A stretch of 64,000 bases of DNA from a virus. Location: the IMG/VR virus record IMGVR_UViG_3300035698_026991, positions 1,202 to 65,201 of that record; one strand, 5' to 3'. The notes beneath the pieces were generated by a model. It saw only the letters and a program-made list of their open reading frames with translations, had not been told where the DNA came from and did not search any database. Of the stretch, positions 4,840 through 44,538 are shown piece by piece (the stretch's first letter is position 1; the number at the start of each line of letters is the position of its first letter). Position numbers and translations under genes: made by a program.

Positions 4840-5835
4840 TTATTGTTGTGGTGATGGACTTACTGATGACGATGGACTTTCAGAAGCAGATGCAGAAGTT
4901 GAAGGACTTAATGAAGCTGAAACTGAAGTCGAAGGACTTACAGAAGCAGACGCAGACGTCGATGGACTAACTGAAGCTGAAACTGATGAGGATGGACTTG
5001 CTGATGCCGAAGGACTCACTGAAAGCGAAACAGATGCAGATGGACTTACTGAAGCTGATGGGCTTAATGAAGCCGATGGGCTATCTGATGCTGATGATGA
5101 TGATGATGGACTAACTGAAGCTGAAACTGATGATGACGGGCTTAGTGAAGCTGAAGAGGATGCAGATGGACTCAATGAAGCAGAAGGACTTGCTGATGCA
5201 GATGGGCTTGCGCCTGTCTTATCAATATCAAGATCTTCTGATAGATTCATTGCTTCTCCTACTTTAATTGAGAAATCAGATAAGTCAGAATTTGTACCAA
5301 CTGCTAATCTATATGTTTGAATACCTGTTACGTTAATCGAATTCAACAAAGTTGAAGACGTTGCAAGGTTTTCTACATAAAGACTCATTGGAAAACCTGT
5401 AACATATGTTTCATTAACATCTACTTGAAGATTTCCATTTACATAAAACTTAACTGCTCCTGCTTCCCATTTCACTCTAAACTCGGTATCTGTCGATGTC
5501 CAAGCTGTTTGCCATGTTATTGTTGTTGATCCAGAATTTGTTCCATCTGAAACTTTTGCTGATATAACAGAATCTGATATATCAAAATAAGCATAAGAAT
5601 CTTTGTTGTATTGTTTGAAACCAAATCTTTTATTATCTCCAAAAGCTGGTGCTGATAAATTAAGGCTGAACACCGCGTCACCACGCATAATGTCACCATA
5701 ATGAATCATGGATGAATCAGAAAGACTTAGTGTCGATCCGCTTACGACTGGAAGACCCCATAGAGTTCTCCACGTTTCTGTGGAATACCCTTCTCTTACA
5801 GGATCGTAGTATATGTTTGTATATTTGTATGACAT
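4840..5835 (-). CDS. virion-associated protein with C-terminal Ser/Ala/Pro hexapeptide-repeat tail
   Basis: 331 aa. N-terminal beta-rich globular part, then about 145 aa of (S-P-S-A-S-x)n repeats at the C-terminus. Same strand as the capsid genes. The opposite-strand ORF 4784..5320 is its shadow. Confidence 0.6.
   Translation of the reverse strand: MSYKYTNIYYDPVREGYSTETWRTLWGLPVVSGSTLSLSDSSMIHYGDIMRGDAVFSLNLSAPAFGDNKRFGFKQYNKDSYAYFDISDSVISAKVSDGTNSGSTTITWQTAWTSTDTEFRVKWEAGAVKFYVNGNLQVDVNETYVTGFPMSLYVENLATSSTLLNSINVTGIQTYRLAVGTNSDLSDFSIKVGEAMNLSEDLDIDKTGASPSASASPSASLSPSASSSASLSPSSSVSASVSPSSSSSASDSPSASLSPSASVSPSASVSLSVSPSASASPSSSVSASVSPSTSASASVSPSTSVSASLSPSTSASASESPSSSVSPSPQQ
4850..5215. repeat. 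coding tandem repeat (18/36-nt period) encoding SPSASx units
   Basis: Repeated units such as GATGGACTTACTGAAGCTGAAACT across about 360 nt. Both strands give open low-complexity frames. Confidence 0.8.
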
Positions 5836-8217: not shown

Positions 8218-9477
8218 TTAACTAGTTACTCCCAATAACAAAGCATGCTTGGATGCTTGTTTTCTCTCTAAACCAGCTTCTGTTATGTATTGATCTACTT
8301 CACCATCAGCATCGGGAGCTTGAATGTTTGTTGATAGTTTAGTGTCTCGGTTGTTCATGTAACGGTATCTAAAGCATTCTAGGTCTAACATAAATGCGTA
8401 ACCTGCGTAATCTTGAACGAACATAGGATTGTGTACAATATTAATTGAACCAAATGCTGTTACCCAATTACTAATCTTCATTCCGTAAGTTGTGTCTAAT
8501 GGTTTTGTTTGGATTTGTCCTCTAGCAATTTCGTTAATTGCTTGTAATACAATACCTCCTGCGAACATTACTTTAGTTTCGTTTCCATAAGTAAATCCTT
8601 CTCTAAGGAATGTATTCATGTCAGGGGCTGTTAAAGGACCACTTTGGTTTTGAACGTATGAGTTACCTGCACTCATGAATTCATGGATTCCTCCTGTACT
8701 TCTTCTTGGGTGACCGTATATACCTGTGTCGGCATATTTTTGACCCCACCAAAAAGCTCTTTCAATATCTAGAGCATGTTCTGTACCTTTCTTTGCTCTC
8801 TGGAAAGGAAGGTCTTTACCTCCGTAAAGATTAGCTTCTTTTTCAGTATTAGATACTGCGATTGTTGTTTTGAAGATTTGTGTATAGTTAGATTGAGGAG
8901 CTGTAAGTGTTGAGTTTACATTTCTCGCACCACTATTTTCTTCATTAACGTTACCGATAATGAAAAGTCCATCACCGTCAGCCATTGTAGCTGCAGCTGT
9001 TGAACCAAATCCTCTGGCAGCAGCAACAAAAGTTGTTGTTGTTACCACTCCAACTGTAAAGGATTCACCTGTTCGAGCGTTTTTAACAACGTCTCCTAAA
9101 GTGAAGATACTACCAGAGCTTGATCCTGCTCCTGTAACAGTAACAGTTTGATCTGCTGCTGCGGAAACAGTACCTGAAACTCGCGCATATCTACCACCGT
9201 AGACATCTTCAAACCATTTGAATTCTGGGTTTCCTGTCCCTGATTTCATTAATCCTGAACCTTTCCAGGATTTTCCGTCAAATACTTTACCTACGTTTGT
9301 AAGCAATGTTACCAATGGATGTTTGTTGGGTTCTAGTAAAAAGATTTTGTCTACAGCATCAACAACTAATCTTTCCTCTGTGGAAGCAGTTGTTGTAGTT
9401 CTTTGATAACCTGTTGCAGATGTATCTGTAACCTGTCCAGTTAAATGGGTAGGTTCGTTATAATAAGGGTATGACAT
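8218..9477 (-). CDS. major capsid protein (HK97-like, putative)
   Basis: 419 aa Gly/Thr-rich protein directly downstream of an acidic coiled-coil scaffold-like gene and of portal/TerL. Order and size fit an MCP. Confidence 0.6.
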   Translation of the reverse strand: MSYPYYNEPTHLTGQVTDTSATGYQRTTTTASTEERLVVDAVDKIFLLEPNKHPLVTLLTNVGKVFDGKSWKGSGLMKSGTGNPEFKWFEDVYGGRYARVSGTVSAAADQTVTVTGAGSSSGSIFTLGDVVKNARTGESFTVGVVTTTTFVAAARGFGSTAAATMADGDGLFIIGNVNEENSGARNVNSTLTAPQSNYTQIFKTTIAVSNTEKEANLYGGKDLPFQRAKKGTEHALDIERAFWWGQKYADTGIYGHPRRSTGGIHEFMSAGNSYVQNQSGPLTAPDMNTFLREGFTYGNETKVMFAGGIVLQAINEIARGQIQTKPLDTTYGMKISNWVTAFGSINIVHNPMFVQDYAGYAFMLDLECFRYRYMNNRDTKLSTNIQAPDADGEVDQYITEAGLERKQASKHALLLGVTS

Positions 9478-11433: not shown

Positions 11434-13542
11434 TTAACTTTGTAAACTACTTGCTCTATTCATCAAAGCACTTTCTGGATTACTATTATTTCCTGAAGAA
11501 ACATTAGTATTCACTTTTCCACCTCTACTAAAACCTCTTGGGTTTGTTGTAGGTAATGGAATCCTTGATGCTGTTGGTGGTGCTCCAGCGTCCAATAAAT
11601 TAATTGGTGATCCGGCTTGAGCAAATTGTGAGGCCCCATCTTTTCCTCCTCTCAACATTGCTAAAGCTTGATTTGCTATCTCTGGAGATATATTTGTTGT
11701 AGCAGTAGAAGGGGCAACGTTCGCTGGTGAAGGAGGAAGTTCTTCTCCCATCCCTTGTTGCATTGCTGCTTCCTCTGGGCTTAATGGCATTCCATCAGGA
11801 CCCATTGGGACTTCTTCTTCTTGCTCATCTTTTGTTATTGTGTCTAATGACCAGTTCCAATCAGTTAATATCTTCTGTGTTAGTTTTTGAGGATCAACGA
11901 ATGGTAAGTTGATTAATAATTGGAATAGATCCATATCTTGCTTCTTCTTAATATCTTGTTGTCCAGCGATAGAAGGAAGAACAAGTGCTCTATAATCAAA
12001 GTTACCCATAAGGTCATCTTTTTCAATTAATGGGAAAGCTTCCTTACCGTCATCTCCAACAATTCTTATTATCATATCTTCAGTAAAGAACTGTCGTGAC
12101 ATATCCATCCAGTATCTCATCAATAGTGCGTAACCTTCACCTAAGTGGTTAACATAAAGTCTAACTCTTTCTAGTGTTGATTCTCTTAAGTGTCTTACTT
12201 CTGTTGCTGAACCAGCTCCACCTCCTACACCCATAGAGAAATCATCTATACCTGAGGCATATCTCATATCTGCTTTTAGAAGATCTTCTTCTTTGTAAGC
12301 ACTAGCTTTAATATCACTAAATTGTACTTCTCTTACTCCATTTGGATCAACTGAATAAATGATACCGAATGGTCTTGTTACTAATTCGTCTTTATTTATA
12401 TTTGCTAAAGGATTAACAATCCACATCTTGTGAATGGATAAAGTTGTTGCATCAAGTCTTTGGTTCTTGATCATGTTCATCATTATCTGAGGATTTTCAA
12501 GAATCATTGGTAAACTGTACCCTTCAAATTCACCCGGTACCTTTAAGTAAGGGAAATCAATGAAAGCTGCTTCTTTAAAGTCATAAGGGATTGGCATAGA
12601 GCCACCATCAAATATTGGTGTATAAGCAGAACCTACATGCACTGAATATTTATCAGCAAAAGGTTGTGTCCACTCGAATACTTCGTACATCTGTAAATTA
12701 GGATTTGCAGAGTTATTATACTTATCGTCACCTGCTCCAAAAGAAGAAATATCATACGTTTTAGAACCTTTAACTGTCAATCTACTATTTTGTTTTACCT
12801 GAGTCCTGATAGAAGCATAATCTTGCAAATCTCCACCAGAATGATTTAATGCCAAAGCTAATCTCTCTGGATCTGCCCCTGGATATTTTCTTCTAATCTC
12901 TGGTTCTGTCAAAACAAGTCTTTTAAACCAGTATTGTTTATTTTCTCTTTTTGTATTATGCCAATCGTACCAAAGCGTATAGTTATCTACCCATTCTGCA
13001 CAAGGAGCATCATAAAATGTTCTTTCTTCTTCTTTCCATGTTGGTTTTGCTGTAATATCTTTTGTTTGTAAGAATTTTTGTTTCCTAACATCCTTTTTCC
13101 AAAATGCTTGCAAATATCCTGTCCCATAAATAAGGGAAGCCCTAACAACATCTTCAGTTGTAGTATCCATATGAGAAATTTCCCATAGGTAATCACCTAG
13201 TTGTTGTTGTTTACCTGTTTTTGCTTGATCTTCTGCTGTTCTACCTTGAACACTGAATTCAGGTCTAGCATCTAAAACTCTGGGCATAAGTGTTTCTACA
13301 ACTGCTTGTGTATAAGGAACAAATATATTCGACTGCCACTTCTTAATTTCTAATTGTCTGTCTCCTGTATAGGCAATATAAAGTTTATAAGACCTATCTA
13401 ACCTTGGTTTAATAACATTCAAAAAATAATTTCTCGCATCATCCATTTGTAAATTGAAATCAGATAGAAGTTGAACTTCCTCTTTTCCATAGTCTGATGG
13501 ATTATATATTTGATGTTTTCCTACTTTTGATTTTTTTGACAT
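11434..13542 (-). CDS. portal protein (putative)
   Basis: 702 aa directly downstream of TerL in the head module. Size and position fit a portal. No motif verified. Confidence 0.6.
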   Translation of the reverse strand: MSKKSKVGKHQIYNPSDYGKEEVQLLSDFNLQMDDARNYFLNVIKPRLDRSYKLYIAYTGDRQLEIKKWQSNIFVPYTQAVVETLMPRVLDARPEFSVQGRTAEDQAKTGKQQQLGDYLWEISHMDTTTEDVVRASLIYGTGYLQAFWKKDVRKQKFLQTKDITAKPTWKEEERTFYDAPCAEWVDNYTLWYDWHNTKRENKQYWFKRLVLTEPEIRRKYPGADPERLALALNHSGGDLQDYASIRTQVKQNSRLTVKGSKTYDISSFGAGDDKYNNSANPNLQMYEVFEWTQPFADKYSVHVGSAYTPIFDGGSMPIPYDFKEAAFIDFPYLKVPGEFEGYSLPMILENPQIMMNMIKNQRLDATTLSIHKMWIVNPLANINKDELVTRPFGIIYSVDPNGVREVQFSDIKASAYKEEDLLKADMRYASGIDDFSMGVGGGAGSATEVRHLRESTLERVRLYVNHLGEGYALLMRYWMDMSRQFFTEDMIIRIVGDDGKEAFPLIEKDDLMGNFDYRALVLPSIAGQQDIKKKQDMDLFQLLINLPFVDPQKLTQKILTDWNWSLDTITKDEQEEEVPMGPDGMPLSPEEAAMQQGMGEELPPSPANVAPSTATTNISPEIANQALAMLRGGKDGASQFAQAGSPINLLDAGAPPTASRIPLPTTNPRGFSRGGKVNTNVSSGNNSNPESALMNRASSLQS

Positions 13543-13575: not shown

Positions 13576-15048
13576 CTAATAACCACCAGAACTTGGTAAG
13601 TGTTGATCGTAATTAATTTGAGTTAGCGGTTTATCGGACATAACCTTGAATCCCTGACATGCGATTGCTGTAGCAAATATACAGTCATCGTGATATGAGT
13701 CCATTGCAACCATATTGTTCGCGTTGTTAAAAATAAACACAGTCATCTCATCAACGGTCTCTTTACTTCTTATTTTGATATTTCCTTCTCTCGTCATTTG
13801 TTCGAACTCATCAATAAGAATAGGCCTTGTTACTTTTGTAGTCTTCCAACCAAGTTTGTCTGACCACTTACTACCCATTGTATCAAAGTTCGCAGGTCTA
13901 AAATATAACGATGGATATAATAGATTTTTTAATATATTTAAAACAACATTTCCATGCGCCTCTGCTTCTACTACCATTAATGCATTATTATAATGTCTTC
14001 CCCATTTATCTAAAACCTTAGCAAAACGATCTGGTGCTATAAGACCTCTCCAGAAACCAACCTCTTCGCCAGTAGTCCTATCTAAGATTGAACATACAGC
14101 ATAGTCACCTCCAGTAACTCCCTCAGAACAGTCGGCTCCAGCAACGTAGAAATGTCCTTCTTGTGGTTCTTTATATACTCTGAAACCTTCTTCCTCCCTT
14201 ACTTTAGTTTCTTCTCCATTGTCCATTTTTACACTAGCACCTAATTTAAGAACATTTTTCCTTTGTAGAGCAATCGTTTCTTTTGTGAAAACAGACCTAC
14301 CTGATAGAAGAAATTCTAGAGCATAGTTGTTATTAAACTTACGAGGATTATTCATCCTTCGTCTTATAATATCTATTTCTTCTTCTGAGTAGTTCCACCA
14401 CCAGCCGTATTCTTTTTTAATGTAATCATTATCTGATACCCACATTCTATGGAAGTAATCTCCAACGGCTCCAGGAGATGATTCAATAATAATCTTTCCA
14501 TTAACAGGGACAGAAGCTTCAAGTGTCATTAACTTATCTTCAGCATTGTCCCAGAAAGGCACCTCTGTAAGAAGACAGTAGTTAATAGTATATCCACGAC
14601 CCACGTTGTCCGTTGATGGCAAAACAATAATCTTAGAGTCTGACTTAGGGAAAGATATTTCATACTTAGAGTTATAGTGAATAGTAGGCTTAAGAGAGTC
14701 AGGAGTTGTCCTATAAAAAGTTTTAATTTTATCTAAAAGTTCTGCAGTAAGGTCATTGTTATAACCAACAATCGCTGTCGAGACTCCAGCTGTTACAATT
14801 GTTTGATGATACAAAAATCCTGTTACACAGGTTGAGAAACCAATCTGACGAGCCTTCATAATGATTACACGATTGTGTTCTCTCATCGTATTAAAAATAT
14901 CAAGTTGGGCAGGTTTAAGAATAAAGGGAACTAATCCTTTCCCTTCTTTACCTTTGATTTTACAGAAATTTTCTAAGTAAAATCTTGGGTCATTTAATAA
15001 CTCAATGCTGGGTGCTTCATTAATCATATAATTCTGCTGCTTCCGCAT
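13576..15048 (-). CDS. terL: terminase large subunit
   Basis: 490 aa. N-terminal ATPase with KARQIGFST (Terminase_6-like Walker A variant). C-terminal acidic nuclease-like region. Precedes the portal. Confidence 0.75.
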   Translation of the reverse strand: MRKQQNYMINEAPSIELLNDPRFYLENFCKIKGKEGKGLVPFILKPAQLDIFNTMREHNRVIIMKARQIGFSTCVTGFLYHQTIVTAGVSTAIVGYNNDLTAELLDKIKTFYRTTPDSLKPTIHYNSKYEISFPKSDSKIIVLPSTDNVGRGYTINYCLLTEVPFWDNAEDKLMTLEASVPVNGKIIIESSPGAVGDYFHRMWVSDNDYIKKEYGWWWNYSEEEIDIIRRRMNNPRKFNNNYALEFLLSGRSVFTKETIALQRKNVLKLGASVKMDNGEETKVREEEGFRVYKEPQEGHFYVAGADCSEGVTGGDYAVCSILDRTTGEEVGFWRGLIAPDRFAKVLDKWGRHYNNALMVVEAEAHGNVVLNILKNLLYPSLYFRPANFDTMGSKWSDKLGWKTTKVTRPILIDEFEQMTREGNIKIRSKETVDEMTVFIFNNANNMVAMDSYHDDCIFATAIACQGFKVMSDKPLTQINYDQHLPSSGGY

Positions 15049-21809: not shown

Positions 21810-22178
21810 ATGACAAATAAAAATTTAAAATCTAAAAAATTAGTAATTGCATGGGATGTTGATGATACTATAATTATCCCTTCAGTAGCAACAGGTTTGG
21901 ATAGAGACGTTCCTAATTACGATACAATAGCAATATACAGATGGTTTCAAGCTCAAGGACATTATATGATAATTTGGTCAGGAGGAGGAAAAGATTATGC
22001 TGAAATGTGGGCAGAAAAATTAGGATTAGAAGCTGATGAAATTATGGCAAAAGATACTCGTTTGAAAGATAGGGTTGATATTTCTTTTGATGACTGTCTT
22101 GTAGATCTAGCTAAAGTGAACGTAAAAGTAAAGAGAATCAAAAATAGCGTTAGTAGAAAAGACTCGAACAAGAATTAG
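21810..22178 (+). CDS. HAD-superfamily hydrolase-like protein
   Basis: VIAWDVDDTII matches HAD motif I (DxDxT). 122 aa. Confidence 0.4.
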   Translation: MTNKNLKSKKLVIAWDVDDTIIIPSVATGLDRDVPNYDTIAIYRWFQAQGHYMIIWSGGGKDYAEMWAEKLGLEADEIMAKDTRLKDRVDISFDDCLVDLAKVNVKVKRIKNSVSRKDSNKN

Positions 22179-22237
22179 GAAATTACGAAATTTTTGATAT
22201 AATTAAGATAGTTCTTTTAACAAATTAGATTCATTCC

Positions 22238-22279
22238 TCCAATCGAAAGATTGGAAAAGGGAGCTCCCCGATTTTTTTT
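22238..22279 (+). terminator. rho-independent terminator (tandem hairpins + T8)
   Basis: TCCAATC-GAAA-GATTGGA hairpin, then the GGGAGCTCCC palindrome followed by TTTTTTTT. Confidence 0.6.
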
Positions 22280-22384
22280 GCTAGTAGTTTAATTTTTTTA
22301 TAACTTTTAAAATTAAAACTAATTAGCAAGTTTAATCTTGTTTTTCCCCCCAGCTATCTTATGCTTGGGGGAATGGATCTGAAA

Positions 22385-22457
22385 GCTTCTATAGCTCAGC
22401 TGGTAGAGCAATAGTTTTGTAAACTATAGGTCGTGGGTTCGATTCCTACTAGAAGCT
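22385..22457 (+). tRNA. tRNA-Thr (anticodon UGU)
   Basis: Manual fold: acceptor GCTTCTA/TAGAAGC, D-arm GCTC-AGCTGGTA-GAGC, anticodon arm ATAGT-TTTGTAA-ACTAT, T-arm GTGGG-TTCGATT-CCTAC. No encoded CCA. Confidence 0.85.
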
Positions 22458-22500
22458 CAGGTATTAGTTCATTGAAAATTGAGGTCAAGAAAAAAAATCT

Positions 22501-22911
22501 ATGAAAGAAGAAAAAGGTTTCCTTAAATGGAAACTACAACAAAAACCAACAGTCAGTGATGTTTCATCACTTGTGAATGTTGGAATACTTACGAAAGAAG
22601 AAGCAAGAAAAATTATTCTTGAACAAACAAACGATGTAAGACAAACAGACATAGAAGCTATTAAAGACGAAATAAAGCTTCTAAGAAAGTTAGTCTTAGA
22701 AAACTCACGAAGCAATCCTATCCAGATTGTTGAAATTATAAGAAGGGAAGTACAAGAAGTCCCTTATCGATGGACAAATCCCTATAATGTTTATTGCTCT
22801 AGCATGTCATCAGGGATATCAGATATTCAGACTGTCCCAGCATTAAGTTCGGACACAGGTGATAATTTAACAAAAAACGAACTTGTAGGTAGTACAATTA
22901 CTAAATTATAA
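22501..22911 (+). CDS. hypothetical protein
   Basis: 136-aa ORF following the tRNA. Confidence 0.4.
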   Translation: MKEEKGFLKWKLQQKPTVSDVSSLVNVGILTKEEARKIILEQTNDVRQTDIEAIKDEIKLLRKLVLENSRSNPIQIVEIIRREVQEVPYRWTNPYNVYCSSMSSGISDIQTVPALSSDTGDNLTKNELVGSTITKL

Positions 22912-23046
22912 GTAACTAATTGACCTCAATATTCAGTGAATTAAATGCTGTATTGATGGTTGAGGGGAGAGTAACTAAATAACCAGGGCAAGGAGATATC
23001 TGAAATCAACAACCTTGCCATCTCTCCTGAGGTATTAATACAGTAT

Positions 23047-23113
23047 ATCTCTGCTATTGGATAGATGACGGGTTCCAAACCTGTCTGAGAGGGTTCGATT
23101 CCTTCCAGAGGTG
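23047..23113 (+). ncRNA. tRNA-like element (possible non-canonical tRNA-Trp, anticodon CCA)
   Basis: Canonical T-arm GAGGG-TTCGATT-CCTTC, 7-bp acceptor ATCTCTG/CAGAGGT (one G-U) and anticodon arm ACGGG-TTCCAAA-CCTGT. The D-arm region is only 14 nt, so it does not fold as a standard tRNA. It sits in a 520-nt ORF-free structured region. Confidence 0.3.
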
Positions 23114-23445
23114 CAAAGATTTCGATCTTACTATGTGTGCTGACCACTCACTAGGGGCAAGTTGCTCGGAGTTAAGTCTCCAATGGTCTAGTTATGAAAC
23201 ATAAACAAAAAGTAAGAAAACATAGGAACAGAGGAAAATTCGTTTTCGAAGACAAATGGAGCTTTAAAAAAAGCTTTAAGAGAGATTATTATTTTAGGAG
23301 AAAGTTTAAGAAAGAAGTATATTTATATTATAGGTAATGTCATATTTCGGAATTGATACAGTTGTGTCATAATTCCGAAAAGTGGTTCTTTAAAAATTGA
23401 GGGTTAAGTCTATTCGGAAAGGATAGAATAATAACTAAAGAATAT

Positions 23446-23832
23446 ATGGAAAATATACCAGAGCCAATGGACAAAAATACAGAACCACAAGGAGTACAAG
23501 GAGTACAAACAACACAAGCAGAAAAAGACGAAAGAGAATACAAAATAAAGTGGAGAGAACTTAAGATAGCGAAAACTCGTTCTTTCGTTCTAAGAAAACA
23601 AATTACAGAAGCATATGAGATCCTAGAGAACATTAGATTCGATTACTTAGGAGATACAATGTTTCGTGATTACATTACAAAAGCAAAAAAAGAGTTAGAA
23701 GGAGCTATGACAGATTTCCTTTTATCAGATGGATATTGGGAAGGAAGAATTAAATTTCACAAGGAAATGTCATTCGAAGAATTTAAGAAAAGACGTGTAG
23801 AAGATATTGGACCAGAGTGTAACGTTAACTAA
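23446..23832 (+). CDS. hypothetical protein
   Basis: 128 aa. Precedes RmlB. Confidence 0.4.
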   Translation: MENIPEPMDKNTEPQGVQGVQTTQAEKDEREYKIKWRELKIAKTRSFVLRKQITEAYEILENIRFDYLGDTMFRDYITKAKKELEGAMTDFLLSDGYWEGRIKFHKEMSFEEFKKRRVEDIGPECNVN

Positions 23833-23869
23833 TTATCAATTTAGCCCTCAATTTTTAGCGAATAAAATT

Positions 23870-24811
23870 ATGAAAATGTTAATAACAGGTGGCGCGGGAT
23901 TTATAGGATCAAACTACATTCATTATGTGATGAAGAAGCATCCTGGTTATACAATTACAAATTTAGATTTATTAACCTATGCAGGTAATTTAAATAATCT
24001 AGTTGGTGTGGACCAGAGCGATGACTACGTTTTTATACAAGGGAATATCCTAGACGAATCATTAGTGAATAGATTAGTTAAAGAATCCGACATTGTTGTT
24101 AACTTTGCTGCAGAAAGTCATGTAGATAGATCAATAGAGAATCCAAACGATTTTACAATTACAAATACACTAGGAACTCAAGTATTATTGAATGCTTGTT
24201 TAAAATATAAAAAGAGATTCCATCAAATATCCACAGACGAGGTATTTGGTGATTTGCCGTTAATAGGGAAGGAGAAGTTCACTGAGAATACTTTGTACAA
24301 TCCTTCTAGCCCTTATTCAGCTTCCAAAGCTGCCGCAGATCATCTTGTACGAGCTTATCACAAAACCTATGGTCTTGATGTAACTATAACTAATTGTTCT
24401 AACAATTACGGAAGATTTCAACACGAAGAGAAGTTTCTACCTAAAATGATCATACAAGCTGTTAAAGGTGAGAAATTACCTATTTATGGTGAAGGAAAGA
24501 ACATGAGAGATTGGATACACGTAGAGGATCACTGTTCGGCCATAGATTTGGTCATTCAAGAAGGAAAAGTAGGAGAGACATACCTTGTAGGTGGTAATGC
24601 ATGCAAAAGCAATATAGATGTAGCAAACGAAATTTTAAAGGCTCTACATAGGGATAAATCCAGCCTCGAATTCGTCACAGACCGTCTTGGGCATGACCTT
24701 CGATACGAAGTAGATTCATCTAAGATAGAGAAAGAGCTCGGGTGGAAGAGAAAGTACAATTTTAAGGATGGATTAAAAGAAACAATTAATTGGTATACAC
24801 CAAGTTATTAA
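23870..24811 (+). CDS. rfbB: dTDP-glucose 4,6-dehydratase
   Basis: MKMLITGGAGFIGSNY Rossmann start, YSASKAAADHLVRAYHKTYGL (YxxxK catalytic motif), NCSNNYG. Start moved to the in-frame ATG at 23870 to avoid overlap. Confidence 0.85.
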   Translation: MKMLITGGAGFIGSNYIHYVMKKHPGYTITNLDLLTYAGNLNNLVGVDQSDDYVFIQGNILDESLVNRLVKESDIVVNFAAESHVDRSIENPNDFTITNTLGTQVLLNACLKYKKRFHQISTDEVFGDLPLIGKEKFTENTLYNPSSPYSASKAAADHLVRAYHKTYGLDVTITNCSNNYGRFQHEEKFLPKMIIQAVKGEKLPIYGEGKNMRDWIHVEDHCSAIDLVIQEGKVGETYLVGGNACKSNIDVANEILKALHRDKSSLEFVTDRLGHDLRYEVDSSKIEKELGWKRKYNFKDGLKETINWYTPSY

Positions 24812-24815
24812 AATT

Positions 24816-25100
24816 ATGAAAATGAAAATATCAAAGAAAAAGAACAATTTAGAGATTATCATCCCGCTGAAGACACATAGAAGTAACCCATACATGGGAG
24901 ATGAATTCCACCCAGAGATGGATAACCTAATTGGGTTGGTAGAGAATGAGAATGATTTTGGTTTTTGTTATCGTATAGATATGGATTACAAAGACAAACC
25001 AGACCAATGGACTGATTATGTCCTAAAACTAGATAAAGATATGGACGAAGAAGAATTTAGAGATTTATGTACAAAGTACAAAATAGACATAGTGGGTTAG
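24816..25100 (+). CDS. hypothetical protein
   Basis: 94 aa, acidic. Confidence 0.4.
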   Translation: MKMKISKKKNNLEIIIPLKTHRSNPYMGDEFHPEMDNLIGLVENENDFGFCYRIDMDYKDKPDQWTDYVLKLDKDMDEEEFRDLCTKYKIDIVG

Positions 25101-25101
25101 C

Positions 25102-25121
25102 TCACTAAAATCACGAGTCAA
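25102..25121. repeat. left arm of perfect 20-bp inverted repeat TCACTAAAATCACGAGTCAA
   Basis: Exact reverse complement present at 25475..25494. Arms sit 1 nt after the upstream stop and immediately after the stop of gene 25141..25461. Confidence 0.9.
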
Positions 25122-25140
25122 GTTAAGTCAAAAAAAAGTC

Positions 25141-25461
25141 ATGTCAAAAAGAGTACAAGAGAAGTTTATAGATCCAACAGCGCCTGTGGTAAAGAAGGGA
25201 GTGGAACATCATGCTGGATGGGTTTATACACAAAGAACATTAGATATTATCAACGGGAATCAGATGGCCATTATAGAAGCCCTTGGATTACCAGATAAAC
25301 AGGAGAATGCGCTTAAGTCTCAAGTCAGACAAGCGCTATACAGACCACAGAGGTTAGCACACTTCCTAACTGCTCAAGAAATGGCAGATAGGAGCGATGA
25401 GGAAGCAGAAACATTAAAGGATTTGCCTTTAGATATTAATACCCTAAGAAACGTAAGGTAG
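25141..25461 (+). CDS. hypothetical protein (gene bracketed by 20-bp inverted repeats)
   Basis: 106-aa ORF. No recognisable domain. Confidence 0.4.
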   Translation: MSKRVQEKFIDPTAPVVKKGVEHHAGWVYTQRTLDIINGNQMAIIEALGLPDKQENALKSQVRQALYRPQRLAHFLTAQEMADRSDEEAETLKDLPLDINTLRNVR

Positions 25462-25474
25462 ATTATTAAAATTA

Positions 25475-25494
25475 TTGACTCGTGATTTTAGTGA
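25475..25494. repeat. right arm of perfect 20-bp inverted repeat TTGACTCGTGATTTTAGTGA
   Basis: Reverse complement of 25102..25121. Confidence 0.9.
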
Positions 25495-26694
25495 ATTACA
25501 TCCAGAACAGGTGGGGCGTCAGCCCCCTCACCGCCAGCCTAGGCAGAAGCGAGAGCGAGGTAAAGCCATACTGAATTTTGATGGTTTTAATATGCATTCT
25601 CGTGATAACTTCATAAAAGCGGTATACCTGTTCCGGATATAGTTCATTAAGTTTTATATTATTGGAGGGTGATAGCAAGTTCGTTCACAGTATTGCTTGA
25701 GCCTAAGGTGTGAATGGAGGGGTAAAACTCTCCAATAGTATAAAATAAATAATATGAAAAAAATTGATTTCAACAAAACGTGTTGTTTCCAATGCGAAAA
25801 AATTTGTGATTCGAAGTTAGATCTTTTAAGCATCAAATTATATGGTATATGCAAAGGATGCATAAAAAAAGGTGGCAAACAAGAAAAACACCTAATGCAA
25901 ACTTACATAAACAGTTAATACCACAAAACGAATAACAACAGGCATATAACAAAGGGTACCTAACTAAAGGTACCCTTTTCATTATTTATTTTTTAGAATT
26001 TTTCACCTTCCCCATTACGCATAACGAGAAACGTACCCTACACCCCCCACCCTATCCCTCTAACCTTCTCTTACGAGTTTTAAGCTATTAACAACACATT
26101 ATACCTATATACGCTTTAAACCTCTTAGGGGTTGAGGAATTAACTGTAAACAGCATTGGGGAGTCTGGTAGTTAGTAGTGAACTGCGCGTAGTTCGTAAT
26201 GTATGGAATTGGAAAAGTGAGTCAGAAATGCAGATGGGTACGTTACCCTTATAGTTACTTGTAATATTGGGACCCCTAACAGACAACCCCCCAACCCCCA
26301 ATTACGAACTCCACACTGCACACAGCACAAAGCGCACATCGTCTATTATGCACACTCTTCGCTCTTCGCTGTGCATAGCTTTTCTCTCATAGTTAAAACG
26401 GTATTCCCTACACACAGACACTTCGTGTCTGTTACAGTGGTTTCTTACAGTTCTTCTCTGCGTTGTTCGTTGTTGGTTGTGTACATCGTATGGTGTAAAA
26501 CTACTTCTTTGAGTATCTAAGGTCGTAACACTAATAGATAGTGTGGATACTCTTATTAGATATTAGTAAGTAGGTTTAGCACCGAACTCCGAGTTTTCCG
26601 TATAAACACTCGTCACGCACATCGCACCACGCACACCTCACAGGTATGCAGCATACATCTATGCAAGCGATAGCATTACGAGATTAAACCTAAC

Positions 26695-27000
26695 TACTAA
26701 GCACCACCGTAGCGAGTTAGTCACAGGAAGTTTATATATATCTAACTAAGACATCTAGATCTACATCTAGACCAGTTAGAGTATGTAAGGCGACTGGAAA
26801 CAAACCCAGTTAGTAAGGACCGTAGATCCTTATATCCTGTTACTAACTCGTTACACACCACCGTAGCGAATTAGCTACAGAAGAATATTTGATATTGCTA
26901 GAATGTCATTATTAGTGAAGAGGACTCTTCACAGCAAGCCAGCTAGAGTCTTGCCTTCTGTTGCTAATTCGTTACACACCACAATAACGAGCTACACGCA
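26695..27000. repeat. degenerate direct repeats (~40 bp, three copies) inside ORF-free CA-rich region
   Basis: CTACTAAGCACCACCGTAGCGAGTTAGTCACAG (26695), TAACTCGTTACACACCACCGTAGCGAATTAGCTACAG (26843) and TAATTCGTTACACACCACAATAACGAGCTACACGCAG (26964). Also the perfect 8-bp IR GTGAAGAG/CTCTTCAC at 26917. Confidence 0.7.
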
Positions 27001-27192
27001 GCGGATAAACATATCCGTCGTGCATCCTGTTCTTTGACATCTTATATTGATAATATCATATTATTTTTACATAGATTACGCATTAGACCTCTAGTCTTCT
27101 GCGTCTAGCTCGTTATAACCTCTATAGCATAACCACTTAGAGTTATGTTATATCACTATTGCTATAACTATAGCATTAACTATATAATCATT

Positions 27193-27627
27193 ATGGAATT
27201 AAAAAACCTTTTAGACTTCTCTATTACTAGAATCATCGCTTTCAATTCAGATAAGACTAGCGCTGAAGTTAAGCTTGGAGAATGTTTCAAATCTTTATCA
27301 GGATCTAACCCTACTATTAAACCAGATTGCAATGTCAAAGATGCGACATTCAGTAATCCTTCTGAATGGGGAGTTAGGGAGTTCACAGTTACTGATAAAG
27401 CAACTGAAGAAGTAATACAAATTACTTCCTATTACCAAAACATCAATGGTCCTGCATCTCGTTTCTTCGTGACCACTGAAGTTGCTAATAAGTTCTTAGC
27501 TAAGGCTAGCAACCTAAAGGAAAGTAGAATCTCAATAGGAGACTTTCAACCTACTGATGAGCAAAGAGCTTACCTAGAGAAGAAACACGATGGTAAGACA
27601 CCAGGTTACGCACCATTGGTAGCATAA
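27193..27627 (+). CDS. hypothetical protein
   Basis: Listed ORF 27145..27627. Probable start at MELKNLLDF (27193) after an AT-rich leader. Confidence 0.4.
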   Translation: MELKNLLDFSITRIIAFNSDKTSAEVKLGECFKSLSGSNPTIKPDCNVKDATFSNPSEWGVREFTVTDKATEEVIQITSYYQNINGPASRFFVTTEVANKFLAKASNLKESRISIGDFQPTDEQRAYLEKKHDGKTPGYAPLVA

Positions 27628-27645
27628 CTAAATAACTATAACTTA

Positions 27646-27701
27646 AGCACTATAACTATTACTATTGCATTTGCAATCTTAGTAGCTATAGTGCTTTTTT
27701 T
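27646..27701 (+). terminator. rho-independent terminator (long imperfect hairpin + T7)
   Basis: AGCACTATA...ATTGCATTTGCAAT...TATAGTGCT followed by TTTTTTT. Confidence 0.55.
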
Positions 27702-27913
27702 ATACACTACGCACGGTTCACTTAAGCGATAGCTACAACTCATAGCTCTCTCTCTACCATGAGCCGAACATATAGCTAATTCTATCAGGGATAATATATA
27801 AAGATAACTTAAGGATATCTAACTAATAAATTTAAGAATACAAACATCAGTACACAATTTAGGCTTTTCAATTTATTTAACTATCTATATTATCCCTACA
27901 GAGTTAGTTATAC

Positions 27914-27932
27914 ATTATTAATTACCTTAACC
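27914..27932 (+). promoter_or_regulatory. conserved 19-nt upstream motif ATTATTAATTACCTTAACC (copy 1)
   Basis: Motif 13 nt upstream of the ATG of the small membrane-protein gene 27945. Confidence 0.6.
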
Positions 27933-27944
27933 ATCAACACAACT

Positions 27945-28088
27945 ATGTTCTTAACTATAATAGCCACACTTCTCGCTGTAGCACTAATGATAGCAGTAGT
28001 AGTGACAACAGACTTCAAGTCTTTCTTCTCAGTTTGTATAACACTACTAGTAGTCGCTTTACTAAGTGTTCTAATAGCAACAATCTAA
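27945..28088 (+). CDS. small hydrophobic membrane peptide (47 aa)
   Basis: MFLTIIATLLAVALMIAVVVTT.. found by manual translation. Preceded by the conserved motif. Confidence 0.4.
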   Translation: MFLTIIATLLAVALMIAVVVTTDFKSFFSVCITLLVVALLSVLIATI

Positions 28089-28093
28089 GAGAC

Positions 28094-28112
28094 ATTATTA
28101 ATTTCCTTAATC
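28094..28112 (+). promoter_or_regulatory. conserved upstream motif ATTATTAATTTCCTTAATC (copy 2)
   Basis: 13 nt upstream of ATG 28125. Confidence 0.55.
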
Positions 28113-28124
28113 ACCTTAAACAAT

Positions 28125-28358
28125 ATGTTTAATATAAAAGATAGAAAAACTCTAAACACTATATCTAAAGTAGTTGGAAAAACATTTAAAGAAATAAGAG
28201 AAATACTCAAACTAGTAAAAAAAGCACTCAAACTAGTGAAAGGAGTAGATACATCACAGGAAAAAACGACAAAAAGACTAAACAACATTGAAAAGAAATA
28301 TTACACAAAGAAAGAAGTTGATACAATAATAAAAAAACTTAAAACCCAAAAGAAATAA
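28125..28358 (+). CDS. small Lys-rich coiled-coil protein
   Basis: 77-aa ORF following motif copy 2. Confidence 0.45.
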   Translation: MFNIKDRKTLNTISKVVGKTFKEIREILKLVKKALKLVKGVDTSQEKTTKRLNNIEKKYYTKKEVDTIIKKLKTQKK

Positions 28359-28369
28359 AGCAAAACCAC

Positions 28370-28388
28370 ATTATTAATTACCTTAACC
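28370..28388 (+). promoter_or_regulatory. conserved upstream motif ATTATTAATTACCTTAACC (copy 3)
   Basis: 14 nt upstream of ATG 28402. Confidence 0.6.
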
Positions 28389-28401
28389 CACCGCAAACAA
28401 T

Positions 28402-28584
28402 ATGAATCACTACCCACCAATTTCATTACTAGTAGCAATCATCCCATCAGCACCTATATTCAGCTTTGGATACCAAGCAATGGGCATAGAACCCACAGGG
28501 TTACTAGTTTCAATATCATTCATCTTATTACTAATTCAAGTCGCAGGACTAGTTACATACATACTAACTGAAGTATGTAAGTAA
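28402..28584 (+). CDS. small membrane protein (60 aa)
   Basis: Two hydrophobic segments. Confidence 0.45.
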   Translation: MNHYPPISLLVAIIPSAPIFSFGYQAMGIEPTGLLVSISFILLLIQVAGLVTYILTEVCK

Positions 28585-28586
28585 GT

Positions 28587-28605
28587 ATTACTAATTCCCT
28601 TAACC
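28587..28605 (+). promoter_or_regulatory. conserved upstream motif ATTACTAATTCCCTTAACC (copy 4)
   Basis: 10 nt upstream of ATG 28615. Confidence 0.55.
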
Positions 28606-28614
28606 AATCCTATT

Positions 28615-28764
28615 ATGCACTATCTTATTCACTTAACTTTATTCTTCGTAGGACTTACTTTAGTCCTACAAGATATACCTACACACCCATTCTTATTCCT
28701 TACAGGTTTCATAGTCTTAGGGATATGGTATGGGAATGTATTCCTATCACCTAATGATTATTAA
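28615..28764 (+). CDS. small membrane peptide (49 aa)
   Basis: MHYLIHLTLFFVGLTLVLQD.. by manual translation. Confidence 0.35.
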   Translation: MHYLIHLTLFFVGLTLVLQDIPTHPFLFLTGFIVLGIWYGNVFLSPNDY

Positions 28765-28775
28765 TCACCTTAATT
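28757..28775 (+). promoter_or_regulatory. conserved upstream motif ATTATTAATCACCTTAATT (copy 5)
   Basis: 12 nt upstream of ATG 28787. Confidence 0.5.
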
Positions 28776-28786
28776 AACTAAAACAA

Positions 28787-28957
28787 ATGAGATGCTTAAA
28801 ATGGTTACAACCACACATATGGGGTAAATGGAAAATGAAAGAAACAGGAAAGATAATAGTAAATGAAAAGAATAAAGGAAGCTATTGGATACAAGAAAGA
28901 GAATGCACATTATGTGGATACAAAGAATTCAAAGAGTCAAAAACAGAACAAATCTAA
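28787..28957 (+). CDS. small KW-rich peptide with C-terminal ECxLCG motif (56 aa)
   Basis: LQPHIWGKWKMKETG...ERECTLCGY. Paralogous to 34355..34522. Confidence 0.4.
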   Translation: MRCLKWLQPHIWGKWKMKETGKIIVNEKNKGSYWIQERECTLCGYKEFKESKTEQI

Positions 28958-28958
28958 T

Positions 28959-28976
28959 ATTATTAATTAACTTAAC
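28959..28976 (+). promoter_or_regulatory. conserved upstream motif ATTATTAATTAACTTAAC (copy 6)
   Basis: 5 nt upstream of ATG 28981. This supports 28981 as the true start of listed ORF 28885..29454. Confidence 0.5.
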
Positions 28977-28980
28977 TGCA

Positions 28981-29454
28981 ATGCACTCAAACATATTAAA
29001 TGCGTTTAATAAGCTAAATCAATCAGCTAGTTCAGTCAACACATCAACCATTACTGCACAAGAACAATATACTCAGTTATTTTGCAATAATGAAATCAAA
29101 AGTAAAGATGGGATGTTAACACAGGTACTTATACAAAAAGGCCTCAATATCAATGAAACAATGAAAGCATCTTCGTTAATAAAACTATTTATCTTTGATA
29201 AAAACATATCTTGGTTCAGAGGGAACAAGACACCAGCTCTTATGTGCAAAGATAATATAATTAAAGTAATACTCAAAAAAGAAAAGTTCACTGATGAAGA
29301 AATGACAAGAACATTAGAGCTTATTCAACTCACAGACCAAGACCCGAACCTTAGTTGGACAACAGATTCAAAACATCAAGTATATGAAGATGAAGACGAA
29401 GACGATGATGATGATGATGATGATGATGATACTTGGGACTATGATGAAGACTAA
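28981..29454 (+). CDS. triplicated-family protein, copy 1 (acidic poly-Asp C-terminus)
   Basis: Shares the FNK.N start, L.DKNISW and LIELTDKD..L.WE.D blocks with 29485..29961 and 29966..30409. Ends with a 13-residue poly-Asp run. Confidence 0.5.
   Translation: MHSNILNAFNKLNQSASSVNTSTITAQEQYTQLFCNNEIKSKDGMLTQVLIQKGLNINETMKASSLIKLFIFDKNISWFRGNKTPALMCKDNIIKVILKKEKFTDEEMTRTLELIQLTDQDPNLSWTTDSKHQVYEDEDEDDDDDDDDDDTWDYDED
29404..29439. repeat. (GAT)12 trinucleotide repeat encoding poly-Asp
   Basis: gatgatgatgat... read directly. Confidence 0.9.
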
Positions 29455-29455
29455 A

Positions 29456-29473
29456 ATTATTAATAACCTTAAC
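29456..29473 (+). promoter_or_regulatory. conserved upstream motif ATTATTAATAACCTTAAC (copy 7)
   Basis: 12 nt upstream of ATG 29485. Confidence 0.55.
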
Positions 29474-31652: not shown

Positions 31653-32165
31653 ATGAAACAATCAAATACACCAATGAAAACAGTAAAAATCCAATACATC
31701 CGAACCAAACTACAAGTAGAAACTGCAACGGATCTACTTAACAAAACAATAACAGCTAAAAGAAACGAGAAAGCAAAACTCTTGTTTCAAAAGGACTTAG
31801 ACAAAGCAAACCTAATCCTTAAGAAAAACAAAGCGAAAGTTGTTAAAGCTATCACTTTAGCAGAGAAACAAGAGAAAGAACTAGACCTAGAAATAAGAAA
31901 AGCTACACACGGAAAAATACAATTAGACGGTAGAAAGATAGACAAAGATGCATTGAAAACAATAGGACAATTAGGAATAAAGAATAGATACTATTCGACT
32001 ACAATCAAAGAAACAGAAAATACGAATATCGGTGTCTATGAAAACCTAATTAAGCTAGATAAAGAACAAGAAAAAATAGATGCATTCATATTAGAAATGA
32101 TCCTAGGGAAAGTAACAGCAACAGAATTGACAGCACTGATTAATAACATTAAAAAGATAAAATAG
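31653..32165 (+). CDS. hypothetical Lys-rich protein
   Basis: 170 aa. Confidence 0.4.
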   Translation: MKQSNTPMKTVKIQYIRTKLQVETATDLLNKTITAKRNEKAKLLFQKDLDKANLILKKNKAKVVKAITLAEKQEKELDLEIRKATHGKIQLDGRKIDKDALKTIGQLGIKNRYYSTTIKETENTNIGVYENLIKLDKEQEKIDAFILEMILGKVTATELTALINNIKKIK

Positions 32166-32349: not shown

Positions 32350-32508
32350 TCGTTAACCAACTTAGGTTGGTTAAACCTTGGGGAATTGTTGTGAAAGCAA
32401 CATCTACAGCAATAGCGAGGGTAACCAAAGTGATATTCGTACGGGAATTGAACTTAATTATTCCTTAGAGATTGTCTCCAAGATTTAACCAATCTAAGTT
32501 ATAAGCAA

Positions 32509-32686: not shown

Positions 32687-32872
32687 ATGGATATAGAAAA
32701 TCTAACCATCCAATTAAACATAAACATACAAGGTAATTGGAATTATAGAATCATTAGTATAGTAAAAGACAAAGAAGAAATACTAGGACAAGGAACTACC
32801 GATTTAACATTCCAAAAAACATTGACAATTGCTTATGAAAAAGCATTAGAGATAAGTAGCTCATTAATATGA
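32687..32872 (+). CDS. hypothetical protein
   Basis: 61 aa, overlaps the next gene by 4 nt (ATGA). Confidence 0.4.
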   Translation: MDIENLTIQLNINIQGNWNYRIISIVKDKEEILGQGTTDLTFQKTLTIAYEKALEISSSLI

Positions 32873-33264
32873 TAAAATTAAAAAACAATTGGGTATCAAA
32901 AGTAGGATACCCAAATATCCAACTTAACCACACAGGATTTCATATCTCTTACAACCCTTCTCTTCTACCATCAATGCCGGATAAAATATTAGAAACACTT
33001 ACAACAGTAGAAAGTAGAACAGGGAAATCAGAAACAGCTTTAGTAGTTAAAACTAATAAAGCAAAATCTGTATTCCCACACGAATATTTTATTCTTAAAG
33101 GAGACTTCAGAAAAGAGTTTGAAGCTTGTGGAGATAATCTAGAAAAGTGTATGGAAGTATACTTAAATAACAAGGAAGAACATGGATCAGGCTTCTCAAC
33201 TGACGTCCCAATAGAGATGTCAGAAGAAGCTAAAAAGCTAATAGAAAAGGAACTTAATAGTTAG
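32869..33264 (+). CDS. hypothetical protein
   Basis: 131 aa. Confidence 0.4.
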   Translation: MIKLKNNWVSKVGYPNIQLNHTGFHISYNPSLLPSMPDKILETLTTVESRTGKSETALVVKTNKAKSVFPHEYFILKGDFRKEFEACGDNLEKCMEVYLNNKEEHGSGFSTDVPIEMSEEAKKLIEKELNS

Positions 33265-43752: not shown

Positions 43753-44538
43753 TTATTTATCTATTAACCACGTCTTACTTATTTCTTCTATCCTCTTTTT
43801 TATATTTGGAAGAGGGTGAGTCATAATTGTTCCCAGCACTGTCGAAACTCTTTTAGCTCTGTCACTTGTTAATTCATCTAGTTCTTTTTTAGAAATAACT
43901 TCGTGAGGATGGTTAAACATTTCCATTATCTCACTAGGTGAGATTGTTCCTTCGTTAAACAAATGATGAGGCCCTCTAACGCCTTGCCTCCCAATCAATT
44001 TACCTATTTCTGGAATCATATCTTCTAAAATGGTTGCAGATTCTTGAGTATTTACAACTTTTGTATACTTCAACAATTTATCAATTGTATTACGAGAATG
44101 ACTTTTCTCTGAAATTAACAATCTTGGACGAATTATTAGAGTATTAGGATCAATTTCCATGATCAGTCGTTCTGCCATTAGTTTTGTTTCTGTATAAAAA
44201 CATTGTGGATTCTGATCACTATCTTCGTATTTTACATCTGTTTCATCATCTGATTTGAAAATACAAGCTGAAGAAAAGAACACATGTTTGACACCAGCGT
44301 TAAGAGCAACAACAGCAACATGTGCCGCATCAATCACATTTACATCGAAAGCTGCCATTTTGTTTTCTTCACACCAATCTATAGATGTTCTCGCTGCCGT
44401 ATTTATCACGACATCATAATCCATTAAATCATTTGTTGTTATATCATTTAATCTCTTATTCCAGATATCAGCTCCTAAATGCTCTGCTAATGGTAGTCCA
44501 ACGAAACCTTTTCCTATTACAAGTATTTTTTTATTCAT
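43753..44538 (-). CDS. NAD-dependent sugar epimerase/reductase, dTDP-4-dehydrorhamnose reductase (RmlD)-like
   Basis: MNKKILVIGKGFVG Rossmann start and YTETKLMAE (YxxxK) motif. 261 aa. Confidence 0.5.
   Translation of the reverse strand: MNKKILVIGKGFVGLPLAEHLGADIWNKRLNDITTNDLMDYDVVINTAARTSIDWCEENKMAAFDVNVIDAAHVAVVALNAGVKHVFFSSACIFKSDDETDVKYEDSDQNPQCFYTETKLMAERLIMEIDPNTLIIRPRLLISEKSHSRNTIDKLLKYTKVVNTQESATILEDMIPEIGKLIGRQGVRGPHHLFNEGTISPSEIMEMFNHPHEVISKKELDELTSDRAKRVSTVLGTIMTHPLPNIKKRIEEISKTWLIDK

Follow-up and report, generated by a model that had tools for sequence, protein, structure and literature searches.

In the present study, we analysed 64,000 nucleotides (nt) of viral DNA (IMG/VR virus record IMGVR_UViG_3300035698_026991, positions 1,202 to 65,201 of that record), with the focus on a perfect inverted repeat that brackets one small gene, an open reading frame (ORF) of 106 amino acids (aa) at 25141-25461. 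This whole stretch is called the window below; features in it are numbered from its first letter and lie on the plus strand unless stated otherwise. The observations give good support to the reading that the two arms of the repeat are the two strands of a long-range double-stranded RNA (dsRNA) helix, which ties the 5' leader of the mRNA of this gene to its 3' trailer, and we are highly confident that a helix under selection in the sense-strand RNA does exist. The element is a recurrent, covarying and box-bearing mRNA end-clamp, akin to known processing stalks and to mRNA end pairing, and no description of such gene-closing end-clamps was found in Rfam or in the literature searched.

The repeat unit TCACTAAAATCACGAGTCAA lies at 25102-25121 and its exact reverse complement at 25475-25494, which gives arms of 20 nt that are 100% complementary with 353 nt between them, just as a first-pass annotation of the same DNA had described. 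No further copy of TCACTAAAATCACGAGTCAA occurs in the window beyond the two arms, with up to three mismatches allowed. None of 100 dinucleotide-preserving shuffles contained a match of the repeat, which confirms the earlier statement that the pair is far from chance, with none expected by chance. That both arms directly follow stop codons, as the same annotation had it, needs slight correction: the left arm starts 1 nt past the stop codon (TAG at 25098-25100) of ORF 24816-25100, and the right one starts 13 nt past the stop of ORF 25141-25461 and thus at some distance from it. Read as RNA, the helix extends outward to 25098-25122 / 25474-25498 by one G.U pair, one C.A mismatch and two A-U pairs; it can be counted as 20 perfect base pairs (bp) or, with G.U included, as 23 paired positions of 25. 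In the 5' arm (25098-25122) the perfect core 25102-25121 adjoins an outer part that is a variant, UAGCUCACUAAAA, of a shared box described below, and in the 3' arm (25474-25498) the core 25475-25494 adjoins the box UUUUAGUGAAUUA; the two arms pair with each other in the predicted fold. Between arms and gene lie the A-rich leader GUUAAGUCAAAAAAAAGUC (25122-25140), which has no Shine-Dalgarno sequence, and the trailer AUUAUUAAAAUUA (25462-25474), which runs from the stop codon to the 3' arm and is kept in sequence in relatives. A (G)UYAAGU motif of the leader is likewise kept across related phage loci (numbered with the letter L), namely L121, L122, L142, L148, L151 and L156. When 25096-25500 was folded, both the minimum free energy (MFE) and the centroid structure held the full terminal helix closing the molecule, with the leader unpaired (z = -5.4 against shuffles); an inward extension of the helix by leader-trailer pairing does not form.

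A whole-window inverted-repeat scan, together with a helix scan that allowed G.U pairs, revealed two more gene-bracketing stems of like design on the same strand, and we refer to the three units in their order as cassettes C1, C2 and C3, the last being the one described above. In C1, the arms UUAGUUCAUUGAAAAUUGAGGUCAA (22464-22488, 6 nt past a tRNA-Thr gene) and UUGACCUCAAUAUUCAGUGAAUUAA (22920-22944) enclose a 136-aa ORF (22501-22911), and in C2 the arms GUUCUUUAAAAAUUGAGGGUUAAGUC (23385-23410) and AAUUUAGCCCUCAAUUUUUAGCGAAU (23838-23863) enclose a 128-aa ORF (23446-23832); neither ORF was assigned a function. The outer halves of the three stems follow the common box 5'-(U)AGUUC(A/U)UU(G/A)AAA... 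/ ...UUU(U/C)AG(U/A)GAAUUA-3', with that of C3 a slight variant, and the consensus of the outer half reads 5'-UAGUUCWUURAAA / UUUYAGWGAAUUA-3' with two conserved wobble pairs, of which the conserved U.G is a C-G pair in C3 of the window. This 12-nt outer box is all that the three cassettes have in common, and they cross-pair poorly. The inner half, 8-13 bp long, changes from cassette to cassette and from phage to phage yet remains self-complementary in every case, so that the variable inner helix gives each cassette its own address.

The same arrangement recurs in relatives. For the C3 gene, 12 distinct homologous loci and one identical copy were inspected, with DNA taken for every member obtainable, and a flanking stem was present at every one of them (L121, L122, L002/L126, L130, L132, L139, L140, L141, L142-144, L145-147, L148, L150, L151 and L156). 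Far from carrying the gene without the repeats, which the first-pass annotation had named as the finding that would speak against it, the relatives carry both gene and repeats. All three loci with homologues of the C1 gene (L153, L154 and L155) have a flanking stem as well; L155 keeps the C1 arms 3' of a tRNA, and in L153 and L154 the arms are changed and compensated. The helix measures about 23-25 bp in the window and 20-32 bp in the relatives, and the duplex energies range from -27 to -37 kcal/mol. In several of them the inner arms are unrelated to those of the window and yet perfectly self-complementary, for example in L139 (5' CCCTTAAACCTGCGACCAAG, 3' CTTGGTCGCAGCTTTGAGGG), L140 (5' TCCCTAAAAAGTGGAGTCAA, 3' TTGACTCCACTTTTTAGGGA), L142 (5' TTGTTCTTTGTAAAGGTGGGG, 3' CCCCACCTTTTCAGAGAGTAA), L145 (5' TATAGTTCTTTAAAATAGTGTCTAG, 3' CTAGACACTATTTTTAAGAACTATA) and L156 (5' TAGTTCTTTGAAAGTTGGCGTCAA, 3' TTGACGCCAACTTTTAGAGAATTA). 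Non-coding cargo also lies within a stem of like length (L126/L127, 2176-2389), and in L132 a segment of 840 nt on the other strand is likewise enclosed by a stem. The exact 20-mer occurs in three IMG/VR contigs, where it flanks a 74-aa ORF without BLASTP similarity to the ORF of the window, and 36 of the 37 nt of trailer plus 3' arm are identical between the window and the phage contigs L002/L126. We rejected the thought that variable cargo had been placed between constant arms at the L002 locus, as the profile shows the ORFs to be distant homologues: the 74-aa ORF (P0007) belongs to the C3 family, and the cargo is thus a fast-diverging gene, not an unrelated one. A 14-mer, TNAAATCACGAGTCA, was also traced in viral contigs and was dropped, since its 119 loci were all chance matches except for three that were already known.

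The stem of C3 in the window is perfect and cannot by itself tell the two strands apart, and it is the comparison of loci that points to RNA. RNAalifold retained only the terminal helix on six full cassettes. For the covariation analysis, 17 mini-stems, each with its arms joined by an artificial linker, were aligned; 94.3% of the cells were paired versus 74.6% in shuffles, a percentage that is partly so by construction because the mini-stems had been chosen for pairing. The covariation and the contrast of cognate with non-cognate arms are independent of this choice. Changes on both sides were found in 14 of the 20 pairs, none of 500 shuffles reached the observed values, and controls with the register slid along showed pairing of only 33-51%. 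Cognate arms formed duplexes with a mean of -31.6 kcal/mol, versus -10.8 kcal/mol for non-cognate ones, and the cognate partner was the best in 16/16 rows and 16/16 columns. Across 18 stems we counted 394 Watson-Crick, 52 G.U, 7 A.C and 22 other pairs, where the G.U count is somewhat inflated because the helix ends were extended through G.U pairs. The comparison of the two strands is free of this bias: under identical rules, the sense-strand helix was the longer or the sole one in every locus. Two wobbles, moreover, sit at fixed positions, a G.U in 13 of 17 stems and a U.G in 14 of 17. This strand asymmetry and the fixed wobbles indicate an RNA helix, since no such asymmetry is expected of a DNA repeat that recombination or a DNA-binding protein preserves. 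Among the options listed by the first-pass annotation, that of a long-range RNA duplex enclosing the whole mRNA is therefore borne out as to its structure, by the covariation, by the G.U mismatches on the sense strand and by the longer sense helix.

The helix lies clear of the translation start. From the end of the helix to the ATG there are 12-19 nt in C1 and C3 and about 37 nt in C2, a spacing which keeps the translation start region free, and on the other side the helix begins 5-13 nt past the stop codon in the cassettes of the window and in L153. No terminator-like site was found at 25462-25520 in a search for intrinsic terminators, and the arms are followed by AUUACAUCC; the 3' arm of C2 ends 6 nt 5' of the ATG of a dTDP-glucose 4,6-dehydratase-like gene. 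Taken together, the lack of a terminator after the 3' arm and the closeness of that next gene suggest that the cassettes are internal to longer transcripts, and the gene orientation along with the lack of terminators argues that both arms would stand on one RNA. As for where such a transcript begins, a sequence resembling an extended -10 promoter, TGATATAAT (22195-22203), is followed 5 nt later by the box-like UAGUUCUUUUAAC (22209-22221), the whole spanning 22195-22222 as read from the sequence, and the pair is likely the start of the operon transcript, with TGATATAAT as its putative promoter. An arrangement TGATATAAT-N8-TAGTTC is also found 5' of the 5' arm in L130 and L002/L126; in these two loci and in the window (22195-22214) the extended -10 lies 5-8 nt 5' of UAGUUC, and the box would be where primary transcripts begin. 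In other loci it comes about 6 nt past a tRNA 3' end. The tRNA-Thr(UGU) gene of the window (22385-22458) lies directly 5' of C1 in the same orientation and would be co-transcribed with it, so that 3' processing of the tRNA would create the 5' end of the C1 mRNA. A 22-bp helix (22224-22245/22362-22383) follows the box-like UAGUUCUUUUAAC, encloses about 116 nt and ends 1 nt 5' of the tRNA-Thr; 22195-22383 is probably a structured leader of the operon transcript.

Three other readings of the arm sequences were tried and given up. The 3' arm resembles a sigma-70 promoter (TTGACT with an AT-rich upstream tract), but no consistent -10 was found at 16-18 nt in the six loci compared. In the 5' arm, AAAAU could be taken for a -10 element (TAGACA-16-TAAAAT in the scan), but its final T and its spacing are not kept in relatives, and this reading leaves the compensatory changes of the other arm unexplained. 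A resemblance of UUUUAGAG to a CRISPR repeat was dropped for want of a repeat array.

As to what the helix does, RNase III needs about two helical turns of dsRNA, rRNAs are freed by this enzyme from stalks built of distant flanks, the early mRNAs of phage T7 are separated by it, and both RNase E and RNase J are blocked by base-paired 5' ends. From RNase III cutting on the one hand and the resistance of paired ends to RNase E and RNase J on the other, we propose that the clamp serves for excision, for end protection or for both: it would be an RNase III-type processing or end-protection stalk, which releases and stabilises single messages from tRNA-containing polycistronic transcripts. To this statement as a whole, the helix included, we give roughly even chances. 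The genes would be part of long polycistronic transcripts that also contain tRNAs and further structured RNAs, in line with the tRNA found directly 5' of C1 and of the cassettes in L155, L121 and L122, and the perfect or near-perfect helix of at least two turns would be a substrate of RNase III-type enzymes. Cleavage of the stalk would then excise each cassette as a monocistronic unit, as for 16S and 23S rRNA. Whether cut or uncut, the paired ends would shield the 5' end, which would often be a processed monophosphate end just 3' of a tRNA or lie a few nt from a promoter start, from 5'-end-dependent RNases, and the 3' end from exonucleases, thereby stabilising the message.

Several points weigh against this proposal. 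Cleavage, the transcript ends and the helix in vivo are all predictions from sequence, and the RNase III step presumes such an enzyme in the host. Furthermore, the arms and the proteins disagree in their history, which selection on structure only does not predict: the window, L121, L126, L130 and L132 share one and the same inner arm, AAAUCACGAGUCA, although their cargo proteins are only 20-80% identical, with values as low as 20-25%, whereas the proteins of L139-L141 are 61-66% identical to that of L126 and yet have unrelated inner arms. This suggests either fast protein evolution under conserved untranslated regions (UTRs) or exchange at the flanks. The choice of mini-stems for pairing and the extension of helices through G.U, stated above, are to be counted on the same side. 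Finally, the strong conservation of the outer box and of its two wobbles is not accounted for by any sequence requirement of RNase III, which suggests a more specific reader, be it protein or RNA.

An alternative starts from exactly this box: the box and the two wobbles would be bound or cleaved by a specific factor, a dsRNA-binding protein or a nuclease of phage or host, which marks, protects, localises or times the clamped messages, with the inner helix only picking the partner. Wobble pairs are classic recognition marks, and those of the box are conserved in 13-14 of 17 stems, while the outer box itself is kept across unrelated cargo, that is, in C1, C2, C3 and the non-coding cargo of L126. 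Where the operon transcript would have its 5' end (22209-22221), a box-like sequence also stands unpaired, and RNA-repair genes (Rnl1, polynucleotide kinase-phosphatase (PNKP) and RNA ligase) adjoin the cassette in L142 and L143. However, in the scanned ORFs of the window we found no domain for RNA binding, be it RNase III, dsRBD, Cas6-like or another, the box is absent from some stems (L154, L139 and the Acb2-like cassette in L153), and C3 of the window itself has a C-G in place of the conserved U.G. On balance, we hold this alternative to be unlikely.

Less probable still is a lock of the hok kind, in which the 5'-3' helix would keep the full-length message inactive until processing or some other event opens it. 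The resemblance is that of a whole small mRNA with long-range 5'-3' pairing maintained by covariation, as in hok, and the cargo genes are small. But the start is not sequestered here, as the 19-nt A-rich leader and the start codon are unpaired in the MFE and centroid structures and 12-19 nt separate the helix from the ATG in C1 and C3; far from being membrane toxins, the proteins are hydrophilic and helical; no antisense gene is evident and no convergent promoter-like site stands out; and non-coding cargo (L126, 2176-2389) is clamped too. In the hok mRNA of plasmid R1 (hok/sok), the tac and fbi elements pair the 5' end with the 3' end and close the message, which stabilises the RNA and is conserved by covariation (PMC9841398). 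Translation of hok is blocked via the further elements ucb and dcb, in a system that includes an antisense RNA and a membrane toxin; nothing of the kind is seen here, and the start is open.

Very improbable, lastly, is an element acting at the DNA level, which would make the arms terminal inverted repeats of a mobile cassette, inversion sites or homology handles for modular phage recombination: in its favour the repeat is perfect in the window, the arms and UTRs are far better kept than the ORF between the window and L002/L126 (36/37 nt versus no BLASTP similarity), the disagreement of arm and protein phylogenies is explicable by recombination at the flanks, and the 12-nt box on all cassettes could be a recombination handle, as has been proposed for the PeSL elements of phage T4, but the 52 G.U versus 7 A.C pairs and the always longer sense helices are what DNA repeats should not show. 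The miniature inverted-repeat transposable element (MITE) or cassette insertion and the invertible segment, both offered by the first-pass annotation, are disfavoured further. There is no target-site duplication, as the flanks GGGTTAGC and ATTACATC hold no direct repeat and the same is true in L002, L121 and L122; the window has no other copies of the 20-mer; none of the ORFs scanned was recognised as a transposase or recombinase; and the right-arm pattern had 0 matches in 185,579 species genomes. At all loci the cassette is never inverted relative to its own asymmetric arms, leader and trailer, which stand in one orientation to the gene, and the inner arms are specific to each cassette, unlike the shared termini of a transposon family.

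Set beside other known systems, the stalk-like clamp comes close to the RNase III stalks of rRNA operons, in which likewise a long-range helix of at least two turns is formed from the flanks of a whole functional RNA, within polycistronic RNA that contains tRNAs and with covariation. The cargo here, in contrast, is a small protein-coding message or sometimes a small non-coding RNA, several units stand in tandem, each with its own inner sequence and a shared outer box, and cleavage is putative. The early RNase III sites of T7 (R0.3, R0.5, R1, R1.1 and R1.3) are dsRNA elements that part messages and leave a stabilising structure at their ends, and they resemble the clamps as dsRNA elements punctuating the polycistronic RNA of a phage; they are, however, local intergenic hairpins, whereas here the strands of the helix lie on opposite sides of a gene, 350-850 nt apart, and tie the ends of the message. 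In the T4-type phages, PeSL elements place a repeated short motif by many small early genes of plastic regions and may aid gene shuffling. They share with the clamps a repeated regulatory motif flanking small phage genes of no assigned function, but they are local units of promoter plus hairpin in direct orientation, without pairing across the gene. MITEs and the Hin, Gin and Cin segments also carry inverted repeats at both ends of a short segment, unlike the present case in target duplication, identical multiple copies, transposase or invertase and inverted isoform, all of which are missing here, and in the RNA-type wobble asymmetry of the arms.

The protein enclosed in C3 (25141-25461) was not assigned a function and is one of a large family of small phage proteins that carry no annotation. 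Protein searches turned up three close homologues, the profile led to 74 small proteins without a Pfam domain, an exhaustive profile search yielded 926 cluster representatives at E<=1e-3, and related loci were also found with a subfamily alignment. Neither Pfam nor PHROG gave a usable match for the three cargo ORFs and their neighbours, and Pfam on all 63 family members and a sequence profile against the PDB returned nothing usable. The AlphaFold2 model has a mean pLDDT of 69 and is confident only in a two-helix hairpin (residues 31-72), and Foldseek found no fold match for the model in PDB or BFVD; the 106-aa product is hydrophilic, and the prediction for it is a soluble hairpin of helices. 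In L153, a 22-bp clamp (8840-8861 / 9120-9141) surrounds a gene whose product matches the Acb2/Tad1 hairpin domain of anti-CBASS/anti-Thoeris sponges; this gene truly starts at the ATG at 8876 and not at the GTG at 8830 that had been called.

The window comes from a tailed phage and holds genes for the major head protein (8218-9477), portal (11434-13542), large terminase (13576-15048), GroEL (48759-50381), primase-helicase (50451-52226) and RecA (58167-59174). Besides this GroEL and RecA, the phage carries RmlB-, RmlD- and RmlA-like dTDP-sugar enzymes (23876-24811, 43753-44538 and 45462-46151), and the relative L150 carries Cpn60 and Cpn10. A close cultured relative was not found among 50,697 phage records: the sole blastn match to 23400-27700 there was part of the dehydratase gene, and tblastn of two members of the C3 family against phage records gave no match. 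The right-arm DNA pattern and the protein profile had no match in the 185,579 species genomes, which gives no prophage or host assignment. Among the relatives, the C3 homologues of L121 and L122 sit among tRNA genes. In L143 (1171-3071) and L142 (4142-4777), a T4 Rnl1-type RNA ligase and a PNKP lie just 3' of the cassette, and a gene with an RNA_ligase domain lies just 5' of it in a sister contig; in the window, ORF 21810-22178 shows weak HAD and polynucleotide-kinase similarity. In L151, the SU10-type major capsid gene (3301-4893) is split by a LAGLIDADG endonuclease ORF, probably as an intron or intein-like insertion, and the cassette comes after it.

Other structured RNAs and motifs were noticed near the cassettes. 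Rfam recognised only tRNA in the window at the gathering score, nothing at E<=1 in 24500-29000, and only tRNAs in 16 related loci. Just 3' of C3 there are two helices, 25492-25512 / 25626-25646 and 25650-25668 / 25729-25747, the second of which starts past a box-like UAGUUCAUUAAG (25640) and ends just 5' of the ATG of a 54-aa CxxC...CxxC ORF (25754-25918). Further on, within the ORF-poor region 25495-27140, positions 26690-27125 hold a tandem row of three multibranched RNA domains, each about 115-150 nt long. They are closed by helices of 13-20 bp (26709-26728/26835-26854, 26863-26883/26955-26975 and 26984-27001/27099-27116), with CACCAC(C) linkers between them, and the region folds at -146.7 kcal/mol (z = -11.4 against shuffles) without an Rfam match; it appears to be either clamped cargo of the non-coding kind or a novel structured RNA. 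Directly past the 3' arm of C1, a GC-richer segment (22950-23190) contains the conserved complementary blocks GGGGAGAG...GGGCAAGGAGAT...CTTGCCATCTCTCC, and the segment is found again past the C1 homologue in L155 (1330-1450); ARAGORN and Rfam found nothing in 22950-23190, which may be a further small structured RNA. Directly past ORF 27145-27627 stands a hairpin (27637-27704) whose arms measure 33 nt and which, with the T-run after it, resembles a strong intrinsic terminator. In 27915-29473 there are seven copies of TTATTAATTACCTTAAC with 0-2 mismatches, each 10-20 nt 5' of the ATG of a small ORF, and at up to three mismatches 9 matches were found versus 1.3 expected; we take TTATTAATTACCTTAAC for a promoter or translation-start motif that is specific to the phage and serves a block of tiny, partly hydrophobic proteins. 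Finally, a 27-bp helix (32358-32384 / 32475-32501) spans 144 nt in the gap between ORFs 31653-32165 and 32869-33264.

The finding has practical uses. The pattern TAGTTCNTTNAAA...(150-1500 nt)...TTTNAGNGAA with complementary inner arms is a signature by which phage contigs from metagenomes can be searched for non-coding RNAs and small early genes, and the clamps form a natural set of mutually orthogonal mRNA end-clamps which could be insulators in synthetic operons. It also points to an annotation gap, as the family of the enclosed 106-aa protein, with all its 926 cluster representatives, is without annotation, and it opens to testing the question of how messages transcribed together with tRNAs are processed and stabilised by phages. 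More tentatively, and as a view that we put well below an even bet, the clamps may constitute an as yet undescribed, modular RNA punctuation system of widespread uncultured tailed phages, made of a constant box, two fixed wobbles and a zip-code helix, in which each unit closes one early gene (possibly an anti-defence gene, e.g., an Acb2/Tad1-like one) or one small structured RNA into a topologically closed RNA domain and the box is read by a dedicated factor. If this were true, the RNA ligase and PNKP encoded beside some cassettes might even rejoin cut stalks, which would yield messages that are circular or joined at their ends. The halves of a clamp flank a gene on opposite sides, and searches for RNA motifs within one intergenic region therefore miss it; what has been missed would be a layer of genome organisation, in which long covarying RNA helices enclose entire genes one by one.

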